Below, piece after piece: positions 1 through 18,112 of a stretch of DNA of 18,246 nucleotides. Source of the DNA: a virus; the UHGV virus genome UHGV-0188933; one strand, given 5' to 3'. The notes beneath the pieces were generated by a model that had not been told where the DNA came from, searched no databases, and saw only the letters and a list, made by a program, of their open reading frames with translations. Position 1 is the first letter of the stretch. Every line of letters begins with the position of its first letter. Both the position numbers and the translations under genes were made by a program.

Positions 1-166
1 TGCATTTATCAAGTGTTTCCTTCATTGATATCCCGAGAGCATCAACATGCAATGTTGTAGGGATGGCAATTTTTACGCCCGTTTTGCTTTGCTCGACATA
101 AAGATATCCATCTACGATATCAGACCACTTCATTTCGCATAAATCACCGACTCGTTGCCCGGTACA
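1..166 (-). pseudogene. int: lambda-type tyrosine integrase, internal fragment (N-terminal part missing; C-terminal part continues left of the window)
   Basis: Complement translation of 2-166 reads TGQRVGDLCEMKWSDIVDGYLYVEQSKTGVKIAIPTTLHVDALGISMKETLDKC, which I recognise as the central region of lambda Int-family integrases. The frame runs off the left edge. Int-like sequence stops near 166, where the + strand O-like frame begins. Confidence 0.7.
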
Positions 167-847
167 GGGAGCTATCGGACAACTGGACGCCCGTCGCTGG
201 TCAGAGAAACATTCATCCCCGACAACAAAGTTCGGAGCTTATTACGGACTTTTGAGTCGAAAGGGATGCTTAATATTTGCGCGATGGGGAAGAAATTTAG
301 CCTGTTTACAATCGTTAAATATGACGATTTTCAGTCAAAAAATTGTCCAACGGTTGTCCAACGGTTGTCCAACGCAAACACCAGTAATGGTGCGGCTCTC
401 AGCGGAGATTGTCCAACGGTTGTCCAACAGTTGTCCATAAACAATAATATAAATAATATCTCTAATACTGACGTATTAGAGAGTGCCACAGCAGACAAAA
501 AGTCTGACAAGAAAAAACCTTCCGTCAGCTGTCAGGATGTTGTCGATGCTTACCACGAAATCCTTCCTGAAGCGCCAAGAATCCGCGCACTGAATGACAA
601 GCGTAAAAACCAGATCCGAACGTTCTGGCGCAAAGCCGGAGTAATAACACGCCAACTTGACGGGCATGGGTTCACGATGCAGGACTGGAGAAATTATTTG
701 AGCTACGTTGGCGAAAATTGCCGATGGATGTTCGAAGAGCGCCCAAACCATCAACGCGGAACCGTCTGGCACAAAAAGGGATTTGATTTCCTGCTTAACG
801 ATAATACCTACCTGAAAGTTCGTGAGGGTGAACACGATGACCGATAA
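155..847 (+). CDS. O-like replication initiation protein, probably 5'-truncated (start uncertain; candidate starts TTG 155, ATG 266)
   Basis: Open frame follows a TAA at 140-142. Six 11-bp iterons and an AT-rich tract lie inside the coding region, as in lambda O/ori. It sits immediately upstream of a DnaB-type helicase (P22 gene 18/gene 12 style arrangement). No room for an N-terminal iteron-binding domain upstream of the iterons. Confidence 0.55.
   Translation: MPGTGSYRTTGRPSLVRETFIPDNKVRSLLRTFESKGMLNICAMGKKFSLFTIVKYDDFQSKNCPTVVQRLSNANTSNGAALSGDCPTVVQQLSINNNINNISNTDVLESATADKKSDKKKPSVSCQDVVDAYHEILPEAPRIRALNDKRKNQIRTFWRKAGVITRQLDGHGFTMQDWRNYLSYVGENCRWMFEERPNHQRGTVWHKKGFDFLLNDNTYLKVREGEHDDR
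343..441. repeat. origin iterons: 6 copies of TTGTCCAACGG-like 11-mer in two triplets (343-375 and 409-441)
   Basis: Direct tandem repeats ttgtccaacgg, ttgtccaacgg, ttgtccaacgc, then after a 33-bp spacer ttgtccaacgg, ttgtccaacag, ttgtccataaa. Confidence 0.8.
442..481. promoter_or_regulatory. AT-rich tract plus 9-bp inverted repeat (ctctaatac/gtattagag, 460-481) next to the iterons; putative unwinding element of the origin
   Basis: Sequence acaataatataaataatatctctaatactgacgtattagag lies immediately 3' of the iterons, matching the iteron + AT-rich + palindrome layout of lambdoid origins. Confidence 0.55.
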
Positions 848-1856
848 TTTTTATGCGCCGCCCCATAGCATCGAGGCAGAGCAGGCGGTGATTGGTGGAT
901 TGCTTCTGGATGATGACAGCAGTGAGCGCGTCCAGAAAGTTCTGGCGATGCTGAAGCCTGATTCATTTTACAGCCGACCACACAAAATCCTTTTCGAAGA
1001 AATAACCAGAATGCACCGGGAGCAAAAGCCAGTAGATGGCCTGACGCTTTTCGATGAACTGGAGCGTAAATCGTTAACGGCGTCTGTTGGCGGTTTTGCT
1101 TATATCGCTGAGATCGCAAAGAACACGCCAAGCGCAGCAAACATCGTTGCCTATGCAATGCAGGTTCGTGAAACCGCAATGGAACGCTACGCCATCAACC
1201 GCATGACTGAAGCGACGGAATTGCTCTATTCCCGCAACGGAATGACTGCAACGCAGAAGTACGAAGCTATTCAGGCGATTTTCACGCAACTGACAGACCA
1301 TGCAAAAACCGGATCGCGTCGCGGCCTTCGCTCATTTGGTGAGGTCATGGAAGACTGGGTTAGCGACCTTGAGAAGCGATTTGACCCGTCAGGCGAACAA
1401 CGAGGAATGAGCACAGGGATCCCATCTCTGGACAGGATGCTGTCACCGAAAGGTCTGGTGAAAGGCTCTCTGTTCGTCATTGGCGCTCGCCCTAAGATGG
1501 GGAAAACGACGCTATACAGCCAGATGGCAATCAACTGCGCAGTGCATGAGAAAAAGCCCGCTCTGATGTTCAGTCTTGAAATGCCAGGCGACCAGATACT
1601 GGAAAAGCTGGTAGGACAGAAGTCAGGTGTTAACCCGAATATTTTTTACATTCCGGCGACAAATGACGCTGATGACGGCTATCAGGGTGATTACGATGGT
1701 GACTTCAACAGGGCGATCGAAACAGCCAATCGCTTGAGTGAAATCGACCTGCTTTACATCGACGACACGCCGGGATTATCTCTGGCTCAAATCGTCAGCG
1801 AAAGTCGTCGAATCAAGCGAGAAAAAGGATGTGTTGGCATGATTCTGGTCGATTAG
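837..1856 (+). pseudogene. DnaB-family replicative helicase, ended by in-frame TAG at 1854-1856; lacks the C-terminal part of the RecA-like domain
   Basis: N-terminal PPHSIEAEQAVIGGLLLD and SVGGFAYIAEIAKNTPSAANI are DnaB N-domain signatures; Walker A is GARPKMGKTT; the ORF stops at ...GMILVD*, right where DnaB has ...IDYLQLM. ATG at 837 is preceded by GAGGG. Same-frame codons continue 1857-2039 but do not look like DnaB. Confidence 0.75.
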
Positions 1857-2040
1857 AGAACGTGCGAGGAAAACAAGGTGATTGACCAAAATCGAAGTTA
1901 CGAACAAGGAAGTGTCGAGCGAGCTTTAACGTGCGCTAACTACGGTCAGAAGCTGCATGTGCTGGAAGTTCACGTGTGTGAGCACTGCTGCGCAGAACTG
2001 ATGAGCGATCCGAATAGCTCGATGCACGAGGAAGAAGACG

Positions 2041-2763
2041 ATGAATGAGTTAATAAATGGCAATGCCATCAAAATGACAAGCATTGAAATCGCTGAGTTG
2101 GTTGGTAAGCGTCATGACAATGTGAAACGTACCATCGAAACGCTGGCTAAAAATGGTGTTATCCGGCTTCCTCAAATTGAGGTTTCCGAAAGAATCAATA
2201 ACTTAGGGTTCAATGTTCAGTACGAGCATTACGTCTTCGAAGGCGAACAAGGTAAGCGAGACAGTATTGTCGTTGTTGCCCAGTTGTCGCCGGAATTCAC
2301 CGCTCGCCTTGTTGACCGCTGGCGAGAGCTTGAAGAAGCTGCGGTTAATATCCCCAAAACGCTACCAGAAGCGTTGCGCCTTGCTGCTGATCTTGCTGAG
2401 CAGAAAATGCAACTGGAAAACCAGCTCGCAATTGCCGCACCTAAAGTTGAGTTTGCCGATCGCGTTGGCGAGGCCAGCGGAATTTTGATTGGAAACTTTG
2501 CAAAGGTTGTCGGTATTGGTCCAAACAAACTGTTTGCGTGGATGCGCGATCACAAAATCCTTATTGCTTCAGGTTCCCGGCGCAATGTGCCAATGCAGGA
2601 ATATATGGATCGCGGCTATTTCACAGTGAAAGAAACAGCGGTCAATACAAATCACGGAATACAGATATCGTTCACCACAAAAATCACCGGGCGCGGTCAA
2701 CAGTGGCTGACCAGAAAGTTGCTCGATAACGGAATGCTGAAAGTAACAGGAGAGGCTGCTTAA
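2041..2763 (+). CDS. phage antirepressor (Rha-type N-terminal domain plus KilAC-type C-terminal domain)
   Basis: 240-aa ORF; N-terminus resembles Rha-family regulatory proteins and the C-terminal half resembles antirepressor KilAC domains. Start overlaps the upstream stop (ATGA). Confidence 0.6.
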   Translation: MNELINGNAIKMTSIEIAELVGKRHDNVKRTIETLAKNGVIRLPQIEVSERINNLGFNVQYEHYVFEGEQGKRDSIVVVAQLSPEFTARLVDRWRELEEAAVNIPKTLPEALRLAADLAEQKMQLENQLAIAAPKVEFADRVGEASGILIGNFAKVVGIGPNKLFAWMRDHKILIASGSRRNVPMQEYMDRGYFTVKETAVNTNHGIQISFTTKITGRGQQWLTRKLLDNGMLKVTGEAA

Positions 2764-3053
2764 TGGCTAACCTACGCAAAGAAGCGCGCGGCAGAGAATG
2801 CCAGGTACGTATTTACGGCGTATGCAATGGCAACCCTGAAACTACAGTTCTGGCACATTACCGGATGGCTGGAATTTGCGGAACGGGAATGAAGCCTGAC
2901 GACCTGATCGGCGCATGGGCTTGTAGCGCGTGTCACGATGAAATCGACCGACGCACCCATAATCTCGACAACAAAGACGCCAGGCTTTACCACCTCGAAG
3001 GCGTGATCAGGACGCAGGCGATACTGCTGAAGGAGGGGAAGATTAAGTCATGA
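2763..3053 (+). CDS. ybcO: DUF1364 nin-region protein, YbcO-like (putative nuclease)
   Basis: MANLRKEARGRECQVRIYGVCNGNPETTVLAHYR...CSACHDEIDRRTH matches my recollection of E. coli DLP12 YbcO nearly residue for residue, including the Cys/His pattern. Confidence 0.75.
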   Translation: MANLRKEARGRECQVRIYGVCNGNPETTVLAHYRMAGICGTGMKPDDLIGAWACSACHDEIDRRTHNLDNKDARLYHLEGVIRTQAILLKEGKIKS

Positions 3054-4172: not shown

Positions 4173-4247
4173 GGGTCAGTCGTATAAAGGTCATTACGGA
4201 AGGCTGTTAACCTTCTTATCGTGGTTCGAGTCCACGCTATCCCGCCA
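4173..4247 (+). tRNA. tRNA-Asn-like element (anticodon GUU), possibly degenerate
   Basis: Perfect T-arm cgtgg-TTCGAGT-ccacg, perfect anticodon arm gaagg-CTGTTAA-ccttc (U33, anticodon GTT, A37), U8, A14, GG in D-loop, 3' CCA at 4245-4247. Acceptor stem has two mismatches (gggtcag vs ctatccc) and D-stem one. Confidence 0.45.
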
Positions 4248-4283: not shown

Positions 4284-4709
4284 ATGCCGAGCAAAGATTA
4301 CTATCTTAATCGAAGGGCTAGGCTTGCTAAGACCGTGGAAAAGTTGGGTGGTCGTTGCGCGAGTTGCGGATCCGAATATTCGCTTCAGTTTGACCACATA
4401 GACCCTTCCACCAAATCAGCAAATGTAAGCGAGATGCACTATCACTCAGATTAGGTGTTTTATGCTGAGGTTGAAAAGTGCCAACTACTATGTTCTGCAT
4501 GCCACATTCAGAAAACCAAATTTGACCTTAGCTACTTAGTAGCTGGTGAGCTGAATGGTATGAGCAAGCTAACAATGGACAGCGTCCAGTTCATCAGAGA
4601 AAACTACATTCCACGACATAAGGTTTATGGAGCCAGAGGGCTAGGGAGAATGTTTGGTGTAACACATCAAACAGTGCTTTCAGCCTTAAATGGCGAAAGC
4701 TGGAAATAA
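4284..4709 (+). pseudogene. HNH endonuclease interrupted by in-frame TAG at 4452-4454
   Basis: Frame from ATG 4284 reads ...CASCGSEYSLQFDHIDPSTKSANVSEMHYHSD*VFYAEVEKCQLLCSACHIQKT...; the C-x2-C, DH, N and C-x2-CH elements of one HNH motif are split by the stop. Good SD (gaggtgg) upstream. Confidence 0.7.
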
Positions 4710-8089: not shown

Positions 8090-8245
8090 ATGGCAAAGCT
8101 CACCGACAAACAAGAGCTGTTTGCCCGTGAGTACCTGAAAGATTTAAACGCCACACAGGCAGCTATCAGGGCGGGTTGGGCAAAAGCTCAACAACATGCC
8201 GTATTACCGCGCGAAACAATACGCGCAGATGCTTGGCATCGATGA
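8090..8245 (+). pseudogene. terminase small subunit, N-terminal stub (51 codons)
   Basis: MAKLTDKQELFAREYLKDLNATQAAIRAGW... is the conserved N-terminal helix-turn-helix of Terminase_2-type small subunits; frame ends at 8243-8245 after diverging. SD ggag 8 nt upstream. Confidence 0.7.
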
Positions 8246-9833
8246 AAACACGCTGATGGCGATGCGGCGCGGCATGAATGGCTTTACCGCCGATTACCAG
8301 TCGATGCTGCAAAAGACAGGGTTCAACGCTGATAAAGCGGCTGTTCAGTCCAACAAATTCATGACGTCCATGCGCGGGCTTACGTCGCTGTTCGGCATCA
8401 TGCGGGACAAGATCGGCTCAAACCTCGCTGGTGGCCTGGCTGGTTCGCTGGACAGCCTGCGGCGGCGCATCCTCGACAATTTCCCGAAGATTGAAGAGAC
8501 GCTGACCAGAGTTATTAAAGGCGTGATCTGGCTTGCGAACGCATTCACGAGAATGGCGTGGCGGCTGATACAGGGCGCTGGCTCTGTCATCGACTGGTGG
8601 AAGCGTCTTGACGATGGCAGTAAAAATCTGCTGAAAATATTCGGTGCTCTACTGGTCGCATGGCGTCTGCTTAATTCTGCGTTCCTGAAATCCCCGATTG
8701 GAATTATCACCACACTGATTCTGGCGATCGGATTGCTGTACGACGATTACCAGACGTGGAAAGAGGGCGGTAAAAGCCTGATTGACTGGTCCAAATGGCA
8801 GCCAGAAATTGAGCAGGCAAAGAAGGTGTTCAAGTGGCTGCGCGATAAGTTTCTGGAGCTCAAGGACAACCTCGGCGGCTGGAAAAATACGCTCACCATC
8901 CTGTTTGGCTTTCTGGCTGGTGCGAAGCTGGTCTCCATGCTCACTGGCATCGGGCGACTTGTCGCCGGATTTATGGGGCTTGGTAAGGCAATTGGCGGCT
9001 CTATTGGTGGGCTGGGTAAGCTGGCGCAGGGGATCGCACAGCTGGCAATCAAGAATCCATGGTTGCTTATGTTCATTCCTGCCAACAATACGCCGACCAC
9101 CAGTGAAGAAATGGCGTCGATTGGCGGTATAGGCAGCAATATCGTACCTGAAAGGCAGCAGGCATATGAGGCGCTGAGAAAGGAAAATCCCGGCAAAGAC
9201 TTTTTCACTGATGAGCAAATCCAGCGAAAAATTCAGGAGATGGGACTGGAGCCGGAGCAGCGAGCGCAGTCGGTTAAGCGACCTCAGGCGACGGCCCAGG
9301 GCAAGGTATTGCTCGACTGGATGGGGCCAATGTTCAATAAACTGGAGTCGCTTTATCAGCTGCCAGCTGGCCTGTTGAAAAGCGTGGCGATCACCGAGTC
9401 GGGTGGTAACCAGTTCGCCATATCCGGCGCAGGCGCGAAAGGACTGTTTCAGTTTATGGATGGCACGGCGCGCGACATGGGCCTGCGTGGGAATGATGTA
9501 TTCGACCCGGAAAAGTCAGCTCAGGCAGCCGCTAAGTACCTCAGCCAGCTGTTGCGGCAGAACGGCGGAGACCTTAGCAAAGCACTGGCATCATATAACT
9601 GGGGGATCGGGAATGTTAAGCGTTATGGAATGGGGCTAATGCCGCAGGAAACGCGCAACTACATTCCGAAAGTGATGAGCAATATGCCCACCAGCGCCCC
9701 GGTGATTCAGCAGGAAACGAACATTAACATCCACGGCGTTTCCGATCCGCGCGAGGCTGCCCGTTTGACTGTTGACCGTCAAAAGGGCGTGAATTCACAG
9801 TTAACCCAGCAACTCCCCGCAGGACCGAGATAA
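8196..9833 (+). CDS. tail tape measure protein, C-terminal portion, with lytic transglycosylase (SLT) domain; N-terminal part absent
   Basis: Typical TMP low-complexity Gly/Ala/Leu segments (LAGGLAGSLDSL, GKAIGGSIGGLGKLAQGIAQ). C-terminal ITESGGNQFAISGAGAKGLFQFMDGTARDMGL...ASYNWG is an SLT signature. Frame opens only at 8148, just inside the terS stub. Confidence 0.75.
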   Translation: MPYYRAKQYAQMLGIDENTLMAMRRGMNGFTADYQSMLQKTGFNADKAAVQSNKFMTSMRGLTSLFGIMRDKIGSNLAGGLAGSLDSLRRRILDNFPKIEETLTRVIKGVIWLANAFTRMAWRLIQGAGSVIDWWKRLDDGSKNLLKIFGALLVAWRLLNSAFLKSPIGIITTLILAIGLLYDDYQTWKEGGKSLIDWSKWQPEIEQAKKVFKWLRDKFLELKDNLGGWKNTLTILFGFLAGAKLVSMLTGIGRLVAGFMGLGKAIGGSIGGLGKLAQGIAQLAIKNPWLLMFIPANNTPTTSEEMASIGGIGSNIVPERQQAYEALRKENPGKDFFTDEQIQRKIQEMGLEPEQRAQSVKRPQATAQGKVLLDWMGPMFNKLESLYQLPAGLLKSVAITESGGNQFAISGAGAKGLFQFMDGTARDMGLRGNDVFDPEKSAQAAAKYLSQLLRQNGGDLSKALASYNWGIGNVKRYGMGLMPQETRNYIPKVMSNMPTSAPVIQQETNINIHGVSDPREAARLTVDRQKGVNSQLTQQLPAGPR

Positions 9834-11812: not shown

Positions 11813-12703
11813 GTGGGTACAAATAAGAACGGAATTCGATATAGCGCACTTTTTCTTTCCGGGTTGCTCTTATCCGGGGGCGCGAGTGCAGGCTTTAATT
11901 CCGCGCAGAACGCTGAGTACAAAAGACGTCCAGGATGGCAGCCGATAGTAATTTTATCGACAGATGATTGTCAGACATGGAAATCTAAAGGGAAGTCACT
12001 AATTGACTGGAGTGGCGAGATCTGTGGTCCTGACGGGTTGATTAAGGCAATCAATAAAAAGCCGGAGAATATACCAGCTTTTTATGCTGCATATCATGAG
12101 TACGGCACAGGTGGAGTTAGGGCTATCGATGTAAGAGATAATTCTCAGCTAAATTATCTCAATTTTGTAAATGATTTAGCTAAGAAACTTTCTTCTTCGG
12201 CTGTTGTATTAAAGATTTATGATGATTATATCATTGATAGAAAACCCATGGGGCTTGCAGAGGTTTCACGAGAAAATTTTGTAAAACAGCTAAATGAGTT
12301 ATCGCTGAAGCAACCTGCCATCTATCAAAAAATGAACGACGTAGCCAAGGCTGATTACGAGAAAAGTAGTAATGTTCACAGTAACGAAAAGCTTGGCGTG
12401 AATTACAAAACAGTCTGTGGTCCTTATACGATTGATCTGTCTTCTGCTGATGGTTGGGCCAGAATTAATGGCGCAAAACCAGAGACGCAAAAAATTAGCC
12501 CAATCGGCTCTGGTGGTAGCACCAAAGGGGAACCGGATAACATCAAGATGGAGTGGATGGCTGCCACTAATCAACCCGGCCGCTGGGTTGGGCTTGAGTA
12601 CATCAAGCGCAACGGAAAAGCTATTCTCAACGCACAGTGGTTGCAGGCCAGCATAGACGCGCCGCGCCAGTATGCAACATACGACTGCCGAAAAGTAAAA
12701 TAG
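11813..12703 (+). CDS. cargo (moron) protein, 296 aa: signal-peptide-like N-terminus and a TMP-like motif; function unknown
   Basis: GTG start 7 nt after GGAGG. N-terminus MGTNKNGIRYSALFLSGLLLSGGASAG looks like a signal peptide. Residues DDCQTWKSKGKSLIDWS parallel DDYQTWKEGGKSLIDWS in the TMP. Remainder is visibly AT-rich relative to flanking tail genes. Confidence 0.55.
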   Translation: MGTNKNGIRYSALFLSGLLLSGGASAGFNSAQNAEYKRRPGWQPIVILSTDDCQTWKSKGKSLIDWSGEICGPDGLIKAINKKPENIPAFYAAYHEYGTGGVRAIDVRDNSQLNYLNFVNDLAKKLSSSAVVLKIYDDYIIDRKPMGLAEVSRENFVKQLNELSLKQPAIYQKMNDVAKADYEKSSNVHSNEKLGVNYKTVCGPYTIDLSSADGWARINGAKPETQKISPIGSGGSTKGEPDNIKMEWMAATNQPGRWVGLEYIKRNGKAILNAQWLQASIDAPRQYATYDCRKVK

Positions 12704-12721
12704 CCCGCCAGATAGGCGGGC
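12703..12721 (-). terminator. GC-rich hairpin between the convergent cargo genes (terminator for the minus-strand gene)
   Basis: gcccgcc-agata-ggcgggc, 7-bp stem; on the minus strand it is followed by a T-rich tract (ctattttacttttc). Confidence 0.55.
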
Positions 12722-12726
12722 ATGCG

Positions 12727-13017
12727 TCAAAAATATTGAGCTTTAATTATAATAAACACAATAATTACGAACAGGATGTTTCTAATTATTTTTTGCTTAT
12801 GAGTAAGTTGTTTTTTTTCTGTCGATTTCCCGGGAGAGTAAAGGTTAGTGGTATGCGACAGCCCCGTGCCGGGAAGGCCATTTGTCATCTTTACGCCTTT
12901 TTTCCCGATGTTAATGGTGGAACCTTTACCACCAATTGAAGTGCTTACTCCGCTTTTACTAATGTTGATCGCGAGTCCGGGCGCAATCCGGATTCTTTTA
13001 CGAAATCTAAATCCCAT
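12727..13017 (-). CDS. DUF4236-like small protein with C-terminal transmembrane helix
   Basis: MGFRFRKRIRIAPGLAINISKSGVSTSIGGKGSTINIGKKG...PGTGLS resembles what I recall of the DUF4236 N-terminal signature; C-terminus IIRNILFVIIVFIIIKAQYF is hydrophobic. AT-rich, convergent with the cargo gene. Confidence 0.55.
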   Translation of the reverse strand: MGFRFRKRIRIAPGLAINISKSGVSTSIGGKGSTINIGKKGVKMTNGLPGTGLSHTTNLYSPGKSTEKKQLTHKQKIIRNILFVIIVFIIIKAQYF

Positions 13018-13204
13018 TTGTTACTCCTGTAGTCAATAATGCGATGGTGCAGGTCCACTCTATGGCGGCTTCATGGCTGAAATTGATTTTCAATGCTTAC
13101 TTGTTGCAAACATATCCTAATACACATTGTGAATGTGTGCCATTGCAGCGGAAAAGCCTTACTTCACACTGATGTAGCTTAGTTACTAAGAGATAATTGA
13201 TACC

Positions 13205-15533: not shown

Positions 15534-16210
15534 GCAAATACACCGAACTGATCACTAACTACCACGCTACCAAGCCACTCTTTTTTGACCATATAGATCT
15601 GAGCACCTGCCCGCTGATTGATGTGTCCAGCACTATGTCAGGGCTTATAACAGCCTTCGATATCGATACTGCTGTCGGTGTACAGCTCGACATCCTCGGT
15701 CTGTGGATCGGACGCAGTCGCATAGTCAGCCAGCCAATTAGCGGAGTTTATTTCAGCTTGGACACTGACGGGCTTGGGTATGACCAGGGCATCTGGCAAG
15801 GGCCATATGATCCTGATTCTGGCTATACGACGCTAAGCGATGAGACGTACCGCATCATTCTGAAAGCGAAAATCGCTATCAACAACTGGGACGGTCGGAA
15901 CGACTCTCTGCCTCCCATCCTTGACGCTGCTACCGCAGGCTCAGGCCTGAGGATGCAGATCGTCGACAACCAGGACATGACGATTTCGGTCTGGGTTTTC
16001 CCTGAAACTGATATTTCTGATGTGTCTCTCGAACTGATCGCCGCTATCAAACAGGGCTATCTCACCGTTAAATCAGCTGGCGTATGGGCCGGTGATGTTG
16101 AAACGCCTTCGGTAGAAACACCGTCAGAAGGCTCTAAATTCTTTGGGTTTGATATGGATAACGAATACATCGGCGGGTTCGATGTTGGAGCATGGGGGAC
16201 AATACTCTAA
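15530..16210 (+). CDS. tail protein, Mu gp48 / YmfQ (DUF2313) family
   Basis: 226 aa, coupled upstream of the tail fibre gene, as in Mu-like and e14-like baseplate modules. Confidence 0.65.
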   Translation: MSKYTELITNYHATKPLFFDHIDLSTCPLIDVSSTMSGLITAFDIDTAVGVQLDILGLWIGRSRIVSQPISGVYFSLDTDGLGYDQGIWQGPYDPDSGYTTLSDETYRIILKAKIAINNWDGRNDSLPPILDAATAGSGLRMQIVDNQDMTISVWVFPETDISDVSLELIAAIKQGYLTVKSAGVWAGDVETPSVETPSEGSKFFGFDMDNEYIGGFDVGAWGTIL

Positions 16211-17076
16211 TGGCAATAAACAACTTTAAACCTTTCGCGCTTGATCCGAACGCTAACGTCACCTCACAAGCTGACTGGGAAGCACTTCCGGCTCTGCTTT
16301 CAGGGTTTACGGCAGGTAAAGCATCCAGCGCACAGGTCAACAAAGCTATTCGGCAAGCCAGCTTTATCGCGGCAGCGTTGGCGCAGTACACCGCCAACAA
16401 AAGCGGGCTGGATGTGCTTGATGATGGAGACCTGAACGGGTTTATATCCAAAATGGGGACCGCTTTCGGGAAAGATTTCCAGGCGCTTGATGCCACGCTG
16501 TCGGCATTAGCTGGGCTCGCAACAGGTGCAAATAAACTCCCATATTTCACTGGAAATGATACAGCAGCGCAGACTGATTTAACTTCTGTTGGCCGTGACA
16601 TTATTGGGAAAAATACTATTGCTGATATTCTCACATACCTTGGTTTGGGAGAAGGCTCAGCATTACCTGTTGGGGTGCCTGTTCCGTGGCCTTCAGCCAC
16701 TCCGCCAACAGGCTGGTTGAAATGCAATGGTGCGGCTTTTTCTGCTGAAGAATATCCGGAACTAGCAAAGGCTTATCCGACAAATAAATTGCCTGATTTA
16801 CGTGGTGAGTTTATTCGTGGCTGGGATGACGGGCGCGGTGTGGATAATGGCCGCGGTTTACTGTCTACTCAGAACGATGAGTTTAAATCCCACAGCCATA
16901 ACTTTGATCGCACATGGGGGTTAAGCGCCTTTGATCCTACTGGGGGCTATGACCTTGTTTCAGCAGATGCAAGCGGGAAAGTAGTAAATTTCGATACTCG
17001 ACCAACCGTCGAAGTGGGCGGCTCAGAAACCCGTCCGCGCAACATTGCATTCAACTACATTGTAAGGGCGGTATAA
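16210..17076 (+). CDS. short tail fibre protein with C-terminal phage tail collar domain
   Basis: C-terminal PVPWPSATPPTGWLKCNGAAFSAEEYPELAKAY...LPDLRGEFIRGWDDGRGVDNGRGLLSTQNDEFKSHSH is a tail-collar pattern. ATG 16210 overlaps the upstream TAA (track ORF begins at in-frame ATG 16192). Confidence 0.8.
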   Translation: MAINNFKPFALDPNANVTSQADWEALPALLSGFTAGKASSAQVNKAIRQASFIAAALAQYTANKSGLDVLDDGDLNGFISKMGTAFGKDFQALDATLSALAGLATGANKLPYFTGNDTAAQTDLTSVGRDIIGKNTIADILTYLGLGEGSALPVGVPVPWPSATPPTGWLKCNGAAFSAEEYPELAKAYPTNKLPDLRGEFIRGWDDGRGVDNGRGLLSTQNDEFKSHSHNFDRTWGLSAFDPTGGYDLVSADASGKVVNFDTRPTVEVGGSETRPRNIAFNYIVRAV

Positions 17077-17684
17077 TGACCACAAAAGAAATCAACCTGG
17101 ATGAAAACGGGTTCGCCACGGAATCTGGGGTTATCACTGTTTATAATTACGATGGCGTGACGCGTGAATATATCGGTTTATCTGTTGAATATCTTCCCGT
17201 TGGCGTTGGTGTTCCAGGCAATTCGTGCGTGGATGCGCCAATCAGCAAAAAGGACGGCTTTGCTGTTTGCCGGACGGCTGATTTGACCGGTTGGGAATAT
17301 GTTGCAGACCATCGCGGCGAAACCGTTTACAGCACGGAAACTGGAGAACCTGTGGCAGTTTCACAGTTGGGAGAATACCCGGAAGGAACCACCACCAAAG
17401 CACCTGATACGCCATACGACAAATGGGATGGCCAAAAATGGGTGACGGATGCCGATGCACAGCATAGTGCCGCACTAGACGCGGCAGAAGTAAAGCGCCA
17501 GTCACTGATTGATGCAGCAATGGCTTCCATTAGTCTGATTCAGCTGAAATTACGGGCCGGACGGAATCTGACGCAGGCAGAAACCGCCCGACTTAACGCT
17601 GCGCTGGATTACATTGACGCGGTGACGGCAACAGATACCAGCACCGCGCCGGATGTCATCTGGCCTGAACTGCCGGAGGCGTAG
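17076..17684 (+). CDS. tail fibre assembly chaperone (Tfa)
   Basis: 202 aa ending ...TATDTSTAPDVIWPELPEA, a typical Tfa C-terminus, directly downstream of the fibre gene. Confidence 0.8.
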   Translation: MTTKEINLDENGFATESGVITVYNYDGVTREYIGLSVEYLPVGVGVPGNSCVDAPISKKDGFAVCRTADLTGWEYVADHRGETVYSTETGEPVAVSQLGEYPEGTTTKAPDTPYDKWDGQKWVTDADAQHSAALDAAEVKRQSLIDAAMASISLIQLKLRAGRNLTQAETARLNAALDYIDAVTATDTSTAPDVIWPELPEA

Positions 17685-17739
17685 GCCATTCAATATCTGG
17701 CGCACCGGAAGTATCGACCAGCTCCAGTGCGTCCAGTTG
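17656..17739 (-). pseudogene. vestige of a second, oppositely oriented tail fibre assembly gene (C-terminal ~27 codons)
   Basis: Complement frame reads QLDALELVDTSGAPDIEWPTPPAVQAR*, parallel to the + strand Tfa end LDYIDAVTATDTSTAPDVIWPELPEA*. Frame has no Met and is closed at 17899-17901. Confidence 0.5.
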
Positions 17740-18112
17740 ACATCCTCCACGCCCTGAAGGACGGGGTTTTACGGCGCACCGGATAAATCCAAATGGAGTT
17801 TCGGGAGATAAATGAAACCGTAGCACGTCGTATGCAAGAACGTGCCACGGCTGGCTGGCGAACTTTCGATAGTGCGAGTATTGAATGATTTCCAGCCGTT
17901 ACCGATTTTACTATGTTTTCAGTAGAACGCTTAGACAAAACTTAGGCGCACAAAGCTTTGCACTGGATTGCAAGACTTTGTTCTATTCGATATGGGTTAA
18001 GGTGGATCACTCCACCTTTTCATCAAGCCAGTCCGCCCACCATTGCATCATTTCTCTGCGCTTATCGAGATACTGAGCATGGTTGTAAATTCAGCAAACG
18101 ACGTAATGTGTT

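Follow-up and report, generated by a model that had tools for sequence, protein, structure and literature searches.

DLP12, Rac and Qin, in the chromosome of E. coli K-12, are cryptic prophages, remnants of lambdoid phages in which several internal deletions have eliminated replication, immunity and morphogenesis genes, whereas ninE, ybcO, rusA, Q and the lysis genes have been kept. Here we describe a DnaB-like replicative helicase gene that is cut short in the virus genome UHGV-0188933, an 18,246-nucleotide stretch of DNA referred to below as the window, and whose positions are used throughout. The helicase frame ends at a TAG codon (1854–1856). We argue that this stop codon is very probably the scar of a single illegitimate-recombination deletion in a dead lambdoid prophage remnant, which joined the helicase gene to ninE.

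The window remnant is like DLP12, Rac and Qin in that it keeps the ninF-roi-ybcO-rusA-ninH-Q-lysis block. It is unlike them in that it lies beside ybhC, is a hybrid with a contractile-tail baseplate module, and has junctions that are found in no complete E. coli genome searched. The deletion that truncates the helicase gene resembles the nin deletions of lambda (nin5 type), since it lies in the P-to-Q interval and entails the loss of tR2 and of several nin genes; but a nin5 phage still has all its replication genes and is viable without N, whereas the window deletion starts in the helicase gene and destroys the helicase, in an element that is non-viable for other reasons too.

The left end of this deletion falls at a dinucleotide where deletions of related prophages also end. 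In its behavior, this hot spot most resembles the Int-promoted 'b' deletions of lambda, in which one endpoint is always at att while the other varies: in both cases there is one exact endpoint from which the deletion runs in either direction, to variable partners that share a few bases with it. The fixed point of the hot spot, however, is inside the helicase ORF (open reading frame) rather than at att, and its partners share TA with extensions at chance level. The junctions are also like those of microhomology-mediated illegitimate recombination, or alternative end-joining, with 2–6 nt of microhomology (TTA, CGATTA, GATTAC, TACC) and no longer homology. In ordinary end-joining, both ends are resected and the endpoints are scattered, whereas one end is kept here to the nucleotide in every event.

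The truncated helicase frame

837–1856, plus strand: DnaB-like replicative helicase pseudogene of the HK620 P / P22 gp12 type, codons 1–339 and the TAG made by the junction (Pfam, alignment with HK620 P).

The helicase ORF runs from ATG 837 to TAG 1854–1856 over 339 codons and its product ends in KGCVGMILVD; the translation bears out the original prediction, made from the letters of the window alone, that the frame stops right after GMILVD. This product is identical to HK620 P (478 aa) at 337 of 339 residues, and the DNA identity is 98%. According to Pfam, the N-terminal domain of DnaB is complete (PF00772, 108.6 bits, residues 8–112) and the DnaB_C match covers profile positions 1–136 of 255 only. 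The Walker A P-loop is present (GARPKMGKT). When HK620 P is aligned to E. coli DnaB (PDB 6bbm), the last residue of the truncated helicase, D339, corresponds to D343 in the IMIDY Walker B segment of DnaB, and the 138 residues after D339, which match DnaB 345–451 and beyond, are missing. The comparison with DnaB that had been suggested confirms the truncation and places it, as predicted, just after the Walker B aspartate. The part of DnaB that is lost after Walker B includes motifs H3 and H4 and the arginine finger.

Homologues of the same short length with a natural stop at this position would have spoken for a different reading, but the helicase homologues are overwhelmingly 476–478 aa long and the gene is intact in 86 of the 86 phage records that span the region (an 87th record ends within it). 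The short helicase is therefore not a natural isoform of functional phages. With a RecA-like C-terminal domain that is incomplete, as it lacks the motifs past Walker B, the DNA-binding loops and the arginine finger, and a length that falls short of about 476–478 residues, the truncated ORF is, judging from its sequence, a gene fragment and not a functional member of the DnaB family; it is best read as a non-functional pseudogene.

The deletion junction

1853–1855, no strand: deletion junction with TTA microhomology, whose TA (1854–1855) is the recurrent breakpoint dinucleotide (alignments in both registers).

A megablast search of phage records shows that HK620, HK633 and HK75, the nearest complete phages, match window positions 700–2900 at about 98% identity; the match is in two pieces, and the 2201 bp of the window correspond to 3472 bp in the phages. 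In local alignments, window 437–1855 aligns with the O-P region of HK620 up to HK620 position 11884, and the window from 1853 onward aligns with HK620 from 13153, in the ninE-ninF-roi region. The two blocks overlap by the trinucleotide TTA, a microhomology common to the helicase gene (GTCGATTA/CC, where the slash marks the breakpoint) and ninE (GTGGCTTA/GAG). Across the breakpoint, the helicase gene reads GGTCGATTA/CCTGAC, the ninE region GGTGGCTTA/GAGAAC, and the window GGTCGATTA/GAGAAC; the intact helicase sequence across this site is GATTACCTGACAC. The TA of the TAG can be assigned either to the Tyr340 codon TAC or to the cTTAg of ninE, and its G comes from ninE. The interval of HK620 that is skipped in the window is 11885–13155 (1271 bp). 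In the HK620 annotation, it contains helicase codons 341–478, ninA, the terminator tR2 (HK620 12330–12362), ninB, and ninE minus its last 26 nt.

In the sequence of events that we favor, the deletion would have joined helicase codon 340 (GAT TA/C) to the 3' end of ninE (CTTA/GAG) via the 3-nt TTA microhomology, and would have taken helicase residues 341–478 (all that lies past the Walker B aspartate), ninA, tR2, ninB and most of ninE. The helicase frame then meets the TAG formed by the junction, and the open frame beyond it consists of seven out-of-frame ninE codons followed by ninF. A site-specific break or crossover that recurs at the TA dinucleotide may have determined the left end of the deletion. 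The original prediction had invoked a nonsense change plus an internal deletion. The deletion stands, but since the TAG is built by the junction and one event explains all the features, no separate nonsense mutation is needed.

The junction is found, 100% identical with the window, in three independent assemblies (ERZ28810828, ERZ773108 and SRR30861120), and this excludes the sequencing error at 1854–1856 that had been considered. The exact 339-aa protein is encoded on at least eight contigs and is also in nr, as DAE77796.1. Two contigs carry the same prophage remnant next to a chromosomal ybhJ that codes for 352 aa in one (L002, 3966–5024) and 753 aa in the other (L003, 4968–7229); unless there is a fault in one of these assemblies, the remnant exists in two or more host backgrounds that can be told apart.

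Several points weigh against the interpretation of the TAG as the scar of one deletion. Among 5,426 complete E. coli genomes, 50,697 phage records, the GTDB representatives and the IMG/VR contigs, none has this exact junction. It was retrieved solely by a look-up of the exact protein, in metagenome and SRA assemblies, which are the only sources on its host lineage, and the evidence for the junction consists of assembled contigs. As the nin region is mosaic, the deleted length and the exact gene content are estimates from relatives, and the length does depend on the relative (1271 bp with respect to HK620, about 1.1 kb with respect to HK542). Last, the 339-aa product may have some residual function.

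The sequence after the stop codon

1856–1881, plus strand: last 26 nt of ninE, with its stop TGA at 1879–1881; identical to HK620 13156–13181.
1878–2048, plus strand: ninF, a complete 56-codon gene (Pfam NinF, position as in HK620, called as a gene in the contigs that contain the junction).
2041–2763, plus strand: roi / antirepressor gene (Rha and KilAC domains), intact and colinear with HK620 (Pfam ANT and Phage_pRha, HK620 annotation).

Past the TAG, the helicase frame is open for 63 codons (1857–2045) up to TGA 2046–2048, and its translation is RTCEENKVIDQNRSYEQGSVERALTCANYGQKLHVLEVHVCEHCCAELMSDPNSSMHEEEDDE; the count of 61 codons and the end at position 2042 that had been given earlier are to be corrected to 63 and 2048. 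That this tail is not DnaB-like holds true: Pfam detects NinF (PF05810, 38.2 bits for a cut-off of 27.5) and no similarity to DnaB, so the tail does not align to a helicase C-terminal domain either. The codons after the TAG are not leftover junk, however. They are the end of ninE, read out of frame by the helicase frame as the seven codons RTCEENK, and then an intact ninF. Since the sequence after the stop does not continue the homology to DnaB, it does not have the features expected for read-through or recoding.

The ninF gene lies between ninE and roi; its GTG start at 1878 overlaps the stop of ninE (GTGA) and its 3' end overlaps roi by 8 nt, as in HK620. The overlap with the antirepressor gene had been recognized, but the ninF TGA (2046–2048) sits 3 nt after the antirepressor ATG (2041–2043; ATGAATGA) and not on it. 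It is by coincidence that ninF shares the frame of the helicase. Past the identical 26-nt ninE remnant, the identity to HK620 is 97% over the next 300 nt, and the NinF proteins of the window and of HK620 are identical at 51 of 56 residues. Comparison of the conserved cysteine pattern of NinF (CxxC ... CxxCC) shows that, at codon 22 (about 1941–1943), Tyr replaces the second Cys of the first CxxC pair (CANYG instead of CANCG in HK620), which may reflect early decay of ninF or an allelic variant. In an annotation, the helicase ORF is to be given as a fragment of a pseudogene and ninF as a gene of its own next to it, both within a defective prophage.

A recurrent breakpoint in the helicase gene

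In a homology search whose hits were then compared at the DNA level, several aberrant relatives of the helicase were found whose helicase part ends at exactly GMILVDY and is followed by unrelated sequence. The existence of a recurrent, nucleotide-precise and two-sided breakpoint in the helicase gene is well supported: in total, at least 10 independent junctions that retain the N-terminal half of the gene and at least five that retain the C-terminal half fall at the same TA, which is window 1854–1855 and HK620 (NC_002730) 11883–11884 (hot-spot loci L006–L010, L012, L019, L021–L023 and L144–L149). The prophages concerned, all of them other than that of the window, differ in their immunity regions, and their sequences were drawn from NCBI, ENA, Logan and IMG.

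The junctions that retain the N-terminal half (GGTCGATTA/...) have as partners Rz, the ninI phosphatase gene, gp10, gp26, an int-like region and a portal gene; pattern scans of IMG/VR gave three more partner sites, one of them just upstream of Q. The bases shared with the partner are CGATTA for Rz (native partner), GATTAC for ninI and TACC for gp10. The allele joined upstream of Q (P0201) occurs on 216 contigs; it was not found in the RefSeq set of complete E. coli genomes. As to the opposite direction, a search of complete E. coli genomes with an 800-bp query spanning the site retrieved the finished chromosome of ETEC4071, where the N-terminal half is missing and the C-terminal half, from the same TTA onward, is fused to an N gene that is itself truncated; E. 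coli W and HS have this helicase as well. When residues 341–478 were used as a protein query, they added four more fusions that retain the C-terminal half, from O, from a cro-like helix-turn-helix gene and from two other sequences, all of which read TA/CCTGAC.

Whichever half is kept, the helicase-side sequence always includes TA. The native sequence of the partner is known or inferable in seven cases, and TA is present in every one of them. Beyond TA, matches are about as frequent as chance predicts (C at +1 in 3/9, T at -3 in 3/5). The other lesions of the helicase gene are scattered, with breaks or internal deletions at residues ~115, 133, 270, 281, 311, 378, 411–427 and elsewhere. In IMG/VR, four contigs have a break at the site, compared with none or one that is broken at another place in the gene among 120 loci whose site is intact. 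Of all the structural disruptions found for this widespread helicase gene, more than half fall at one dinucleotide.

Some relatives (P0184, P0196–P0198, P0145 and P0005) have in-frame internal deletions of the helicase gene between short direct repeats, for example VRE...RE or RETE...GETE. In P0005, 20 codons are deleted, starting four codons past the hot spot.

Possible causes of the recurrent breakpoint

The TA pattern points to a site-specific staggered break or crossover. Because both kinds of kept half include TA, the retained ends must overlap by at least 2 nt; and because either half can be kept and both kept ends retain TA, neither a single blunt break nor a single nick can explain the data. 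A blunt break at A/C would require that all five partners of the C-retaining junctions end in TA by chance, and a blunt break before TA would require that all the partners of the N-retaining junctions start with TA by chance. The pattern fits a 2-nt staggered cut or a crossover dinucleotide; a target-site duplication fits less well, and a 4-nt stagger poorly.

We tentatively propose, as a scenario that is plausible rather than probable, that a putative sequence-specific activity cuts or crosses over, with a 2-nt stagger, at the specific target GGTCGAT-TA-CCTGAC (Walker B 'VDYL') in the helicase gene of HK620/P22-type prophages, and that the window deletion is one instance of a recurrent and mechanistically specific inactivation of prophages, not of random decay. 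After the break, microhomology-primed joining would give one-sided deletions of 0.1–15 kb that kill the prophage. Candidate agents are a homing-endonuclease-like nuclease from competing phages, an abortive cleavage complex of a serine recombinase or topoisomerase (in which the covalently bound protein would protect the retained end), a host defence nuclease, or a mobile element that has been lost.

There is a weak dyad symmetry centered on T/A, with 8 of 15 pairs complementary, a value that is reached by 1.4% of the centers in the gene. A hairpin or palindrome at the hot spot was rejected, considering that the z-score of DNA folding is 0.0 and that there are only short imperfect inverted repeats. 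A Chi-like site, TCTGGTCG, lies 4 nt upstream of the break (the Chi-to-nick distance is 4–6 nt); it was rejected because it has two mismatches to GCTGGTGG, and also because Chi leaves the five deletions that retain the C-terminal part of the gene unaccounted for. A gyrase site is disfavored: its 4-nt stagger predicts that GATTAC is always kept, whereas 6 of 9 N-retaining junctions do not have the C. Cleavage before G, which quinolones favor, would agree with one strand of the site but not with the other. Resemblances to the sites of Hin/Gin/Pin and of the Tn3 resolvase, to Ter, to the DnaA and LexA boxes, to att cores and to cos were judged by eye against the consensus sequences, and none was convincing.

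The partner sites have no common motif beyond TA, and no mosaic or gene-conversion boundary is seen at the site among 86 full-length alleles. Our literature searches returned no description of this hot spot, nor of a homing endonuclease that targets this gene. A near-copy of the hot-spot 15-mer, with one mismatch (GGTCGATTGCCTGAC), is present in the endolysin gene of HK620 (L011, 17186–17199, minus strand). About 0.01 such near-matches are expected by chance per genome, and no deletion junctions were seen at the endolysin copy, which probably is a chance match.

Alternative explanations

The truncation could in principle have arisen by a point mutation that changed TAC to TAG, a separate internal deletion having removed the rest of the gene. 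The TAG is indeed one base from the Tyr codon TAC, but the homology to the helicase extends no further than the A of TA, and from the G that follows it the window matches HK620 ninE/ninF without interruption and at high identity. The ninE strand natively reads cTTAGag, so that one junction explains both features and two events are unnecessary; we consider this first alternative highly improbable. We give almost no credence to an artefact of sequencing or assembly, be it a chimeric join or a base-call error. The absence of the exact junction from the complete E. coli genomes and the phage records would be expected if it were one, but the junction is present with 100% identical flanks in three independent assemblies from different projects and in further contigs, a 3-nt microhomology cannot cause a mis-join in a de Bruijn graph, and a junction of the same kind exists in the finished chromosome of ETEC4071. 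That the 339-aa protein is retained as a functional short form, for instance a domesticated N-terminal domain with half an ATPase that titrates a host primase or loader or excludes related phages, is very unlikely in our opinion. The ORF is intact from the ATG to the junction, with its 337 residues of 339 identical to the functional HK620 protein, truncations recur at this exact residue and one allele is found on 216 contigs. The recurrence, however, is at the DNA level and in both directions, and C-terminal halves are kept just as precisely, as one would expect of a hot spot of mutation rather than of selection acting on the protein. Besides, the window has lost the promoter/operator region upstream and the beginning of O, and the RecA-like fold is cut in half.

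The recurrent endpoint, for its part, might mark the former insertion site of a transposable element with a target duplication of 2–4 bp (TA/TTA/TTAC), the element and one flank having been lost later, as in deletions of the IEE/IS629 type or in excision of the IS630 type. Both kept halves retain TA, as the flanks of a target-site duplication would, and the deletions run from the site either way. This explanation is nevertheless unlikely: no end of an insertion sequence (IS) is found at any of the 15 junctions or at that of the window, there is no helicase::IS allele among about 200 related proteins, 120 IMG/VR loci and 87 phage records, and, since the prophages differ in their immunity regions, many independent insertions at one dinucleotide would be required. 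A staggered break or crossover at the TA is what the pattern points to in our view.

The prophage remnant

1–164, minus strand: 3' portion of a gene for a tyrosine integrase; it forms the attL-side end of the remnant and adjoins chromosomal ybhC, which lies just upstream of the window (int comparison).
178–847, plus strand: replication initiator gene O without its first ~221 nt (98% identical to HK75 O from gene nucleotide 222 onward).
8095–8175, no strand: another rearrangement junction, where HK620-like DNA (lysis genes, KilA-N) ends and a contractile-tail baseplate module begins (BLAST).

As far as its gene content tells, the element is what several deletions have left of a lambdoid prophage next to E. 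coli ybhC; it is non-viable, and a hybrid of two phage types. In the contigs that contain the junction (L002 and L003), the chromosomal genes ybhD-ybhH-ybhI-ybhJ-ybhC, 99% identical to E. coli, are directly followed by the integrase fragment. In E. coli 2018-18.25PC an int gene also lies beside ybhC, and the fragment is 96% identical to it. An int'::'O deletion junction is located at about 165–177, where some 13 nt match neither partner. The cI/cro/pR region is absent from the remnant: a second deletion has removed the immunity region, pR included, along with xis and the early-left operon on one side and cII and the beginning of O on the other. Since there is no pR promoter and no complete O gene, the replication module appears to be dead, and it is probably barely transcribed.

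Downstream of the helicase, the remnant keeps ninF, roi, ybcO, rusA, ninH, Q, a tRNA-Asn, the lysis genes and KilA-N. The tRNA-Asn (GTT) is at 4173–4247, between Q and the lysis genes. It is followed, at 4284–4709, by two adjacent ORFs of 56 and 84 aa with HNH-like CxxC/H motifs in one shared frame, which look like a single endonuclease gene split by the stop TGA 4452–4454; neither of the two has a Pfam hit.

The BLAST matches to lambdoid phages end at 8095 and those to an Omnitron-like tail module start at 8175. In this junction region (8095–8245), a 51-aa fragment of a small terminase (Terminase_2) overlaps the start of a tail gene with an SLT domain (8196–9833). The module that follows consists of the baseplate and tail fibre of a contractile-tail phage, and the gene and Pfam list of contig L002 contains no large-terminase, portal, capsid or head, sheath or tube genes in the remnant. 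At 16192–17938, the plus strand carries a tail-fibre gene (Collar domain) and a tail-fibre assembly gene, after which comes an 82-aa ORF in the opposite orientation (17690–17938, minus strand), a layout which resembles that of invertible tail-fibre segments flanked by a DNA invertase gene.

Significance

The truncation of the helicase is in itself ordinary prophage decay, by which this element joins the cryptic lambdoid prophages that have decayed by internal deletions; it is routine, and useful for annotation only. The recurrent breakpoint, for its part, shows that the decay of prophages is not purely random. If a dedicated nuclease or recombinase is responsible for it, this would be a new player in the conflicts between phages or between phages and their hosts. 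If true, a site of about 30 bp with a mutable TA would also make a simple system for learning how bacteria make large one-sided deletions.

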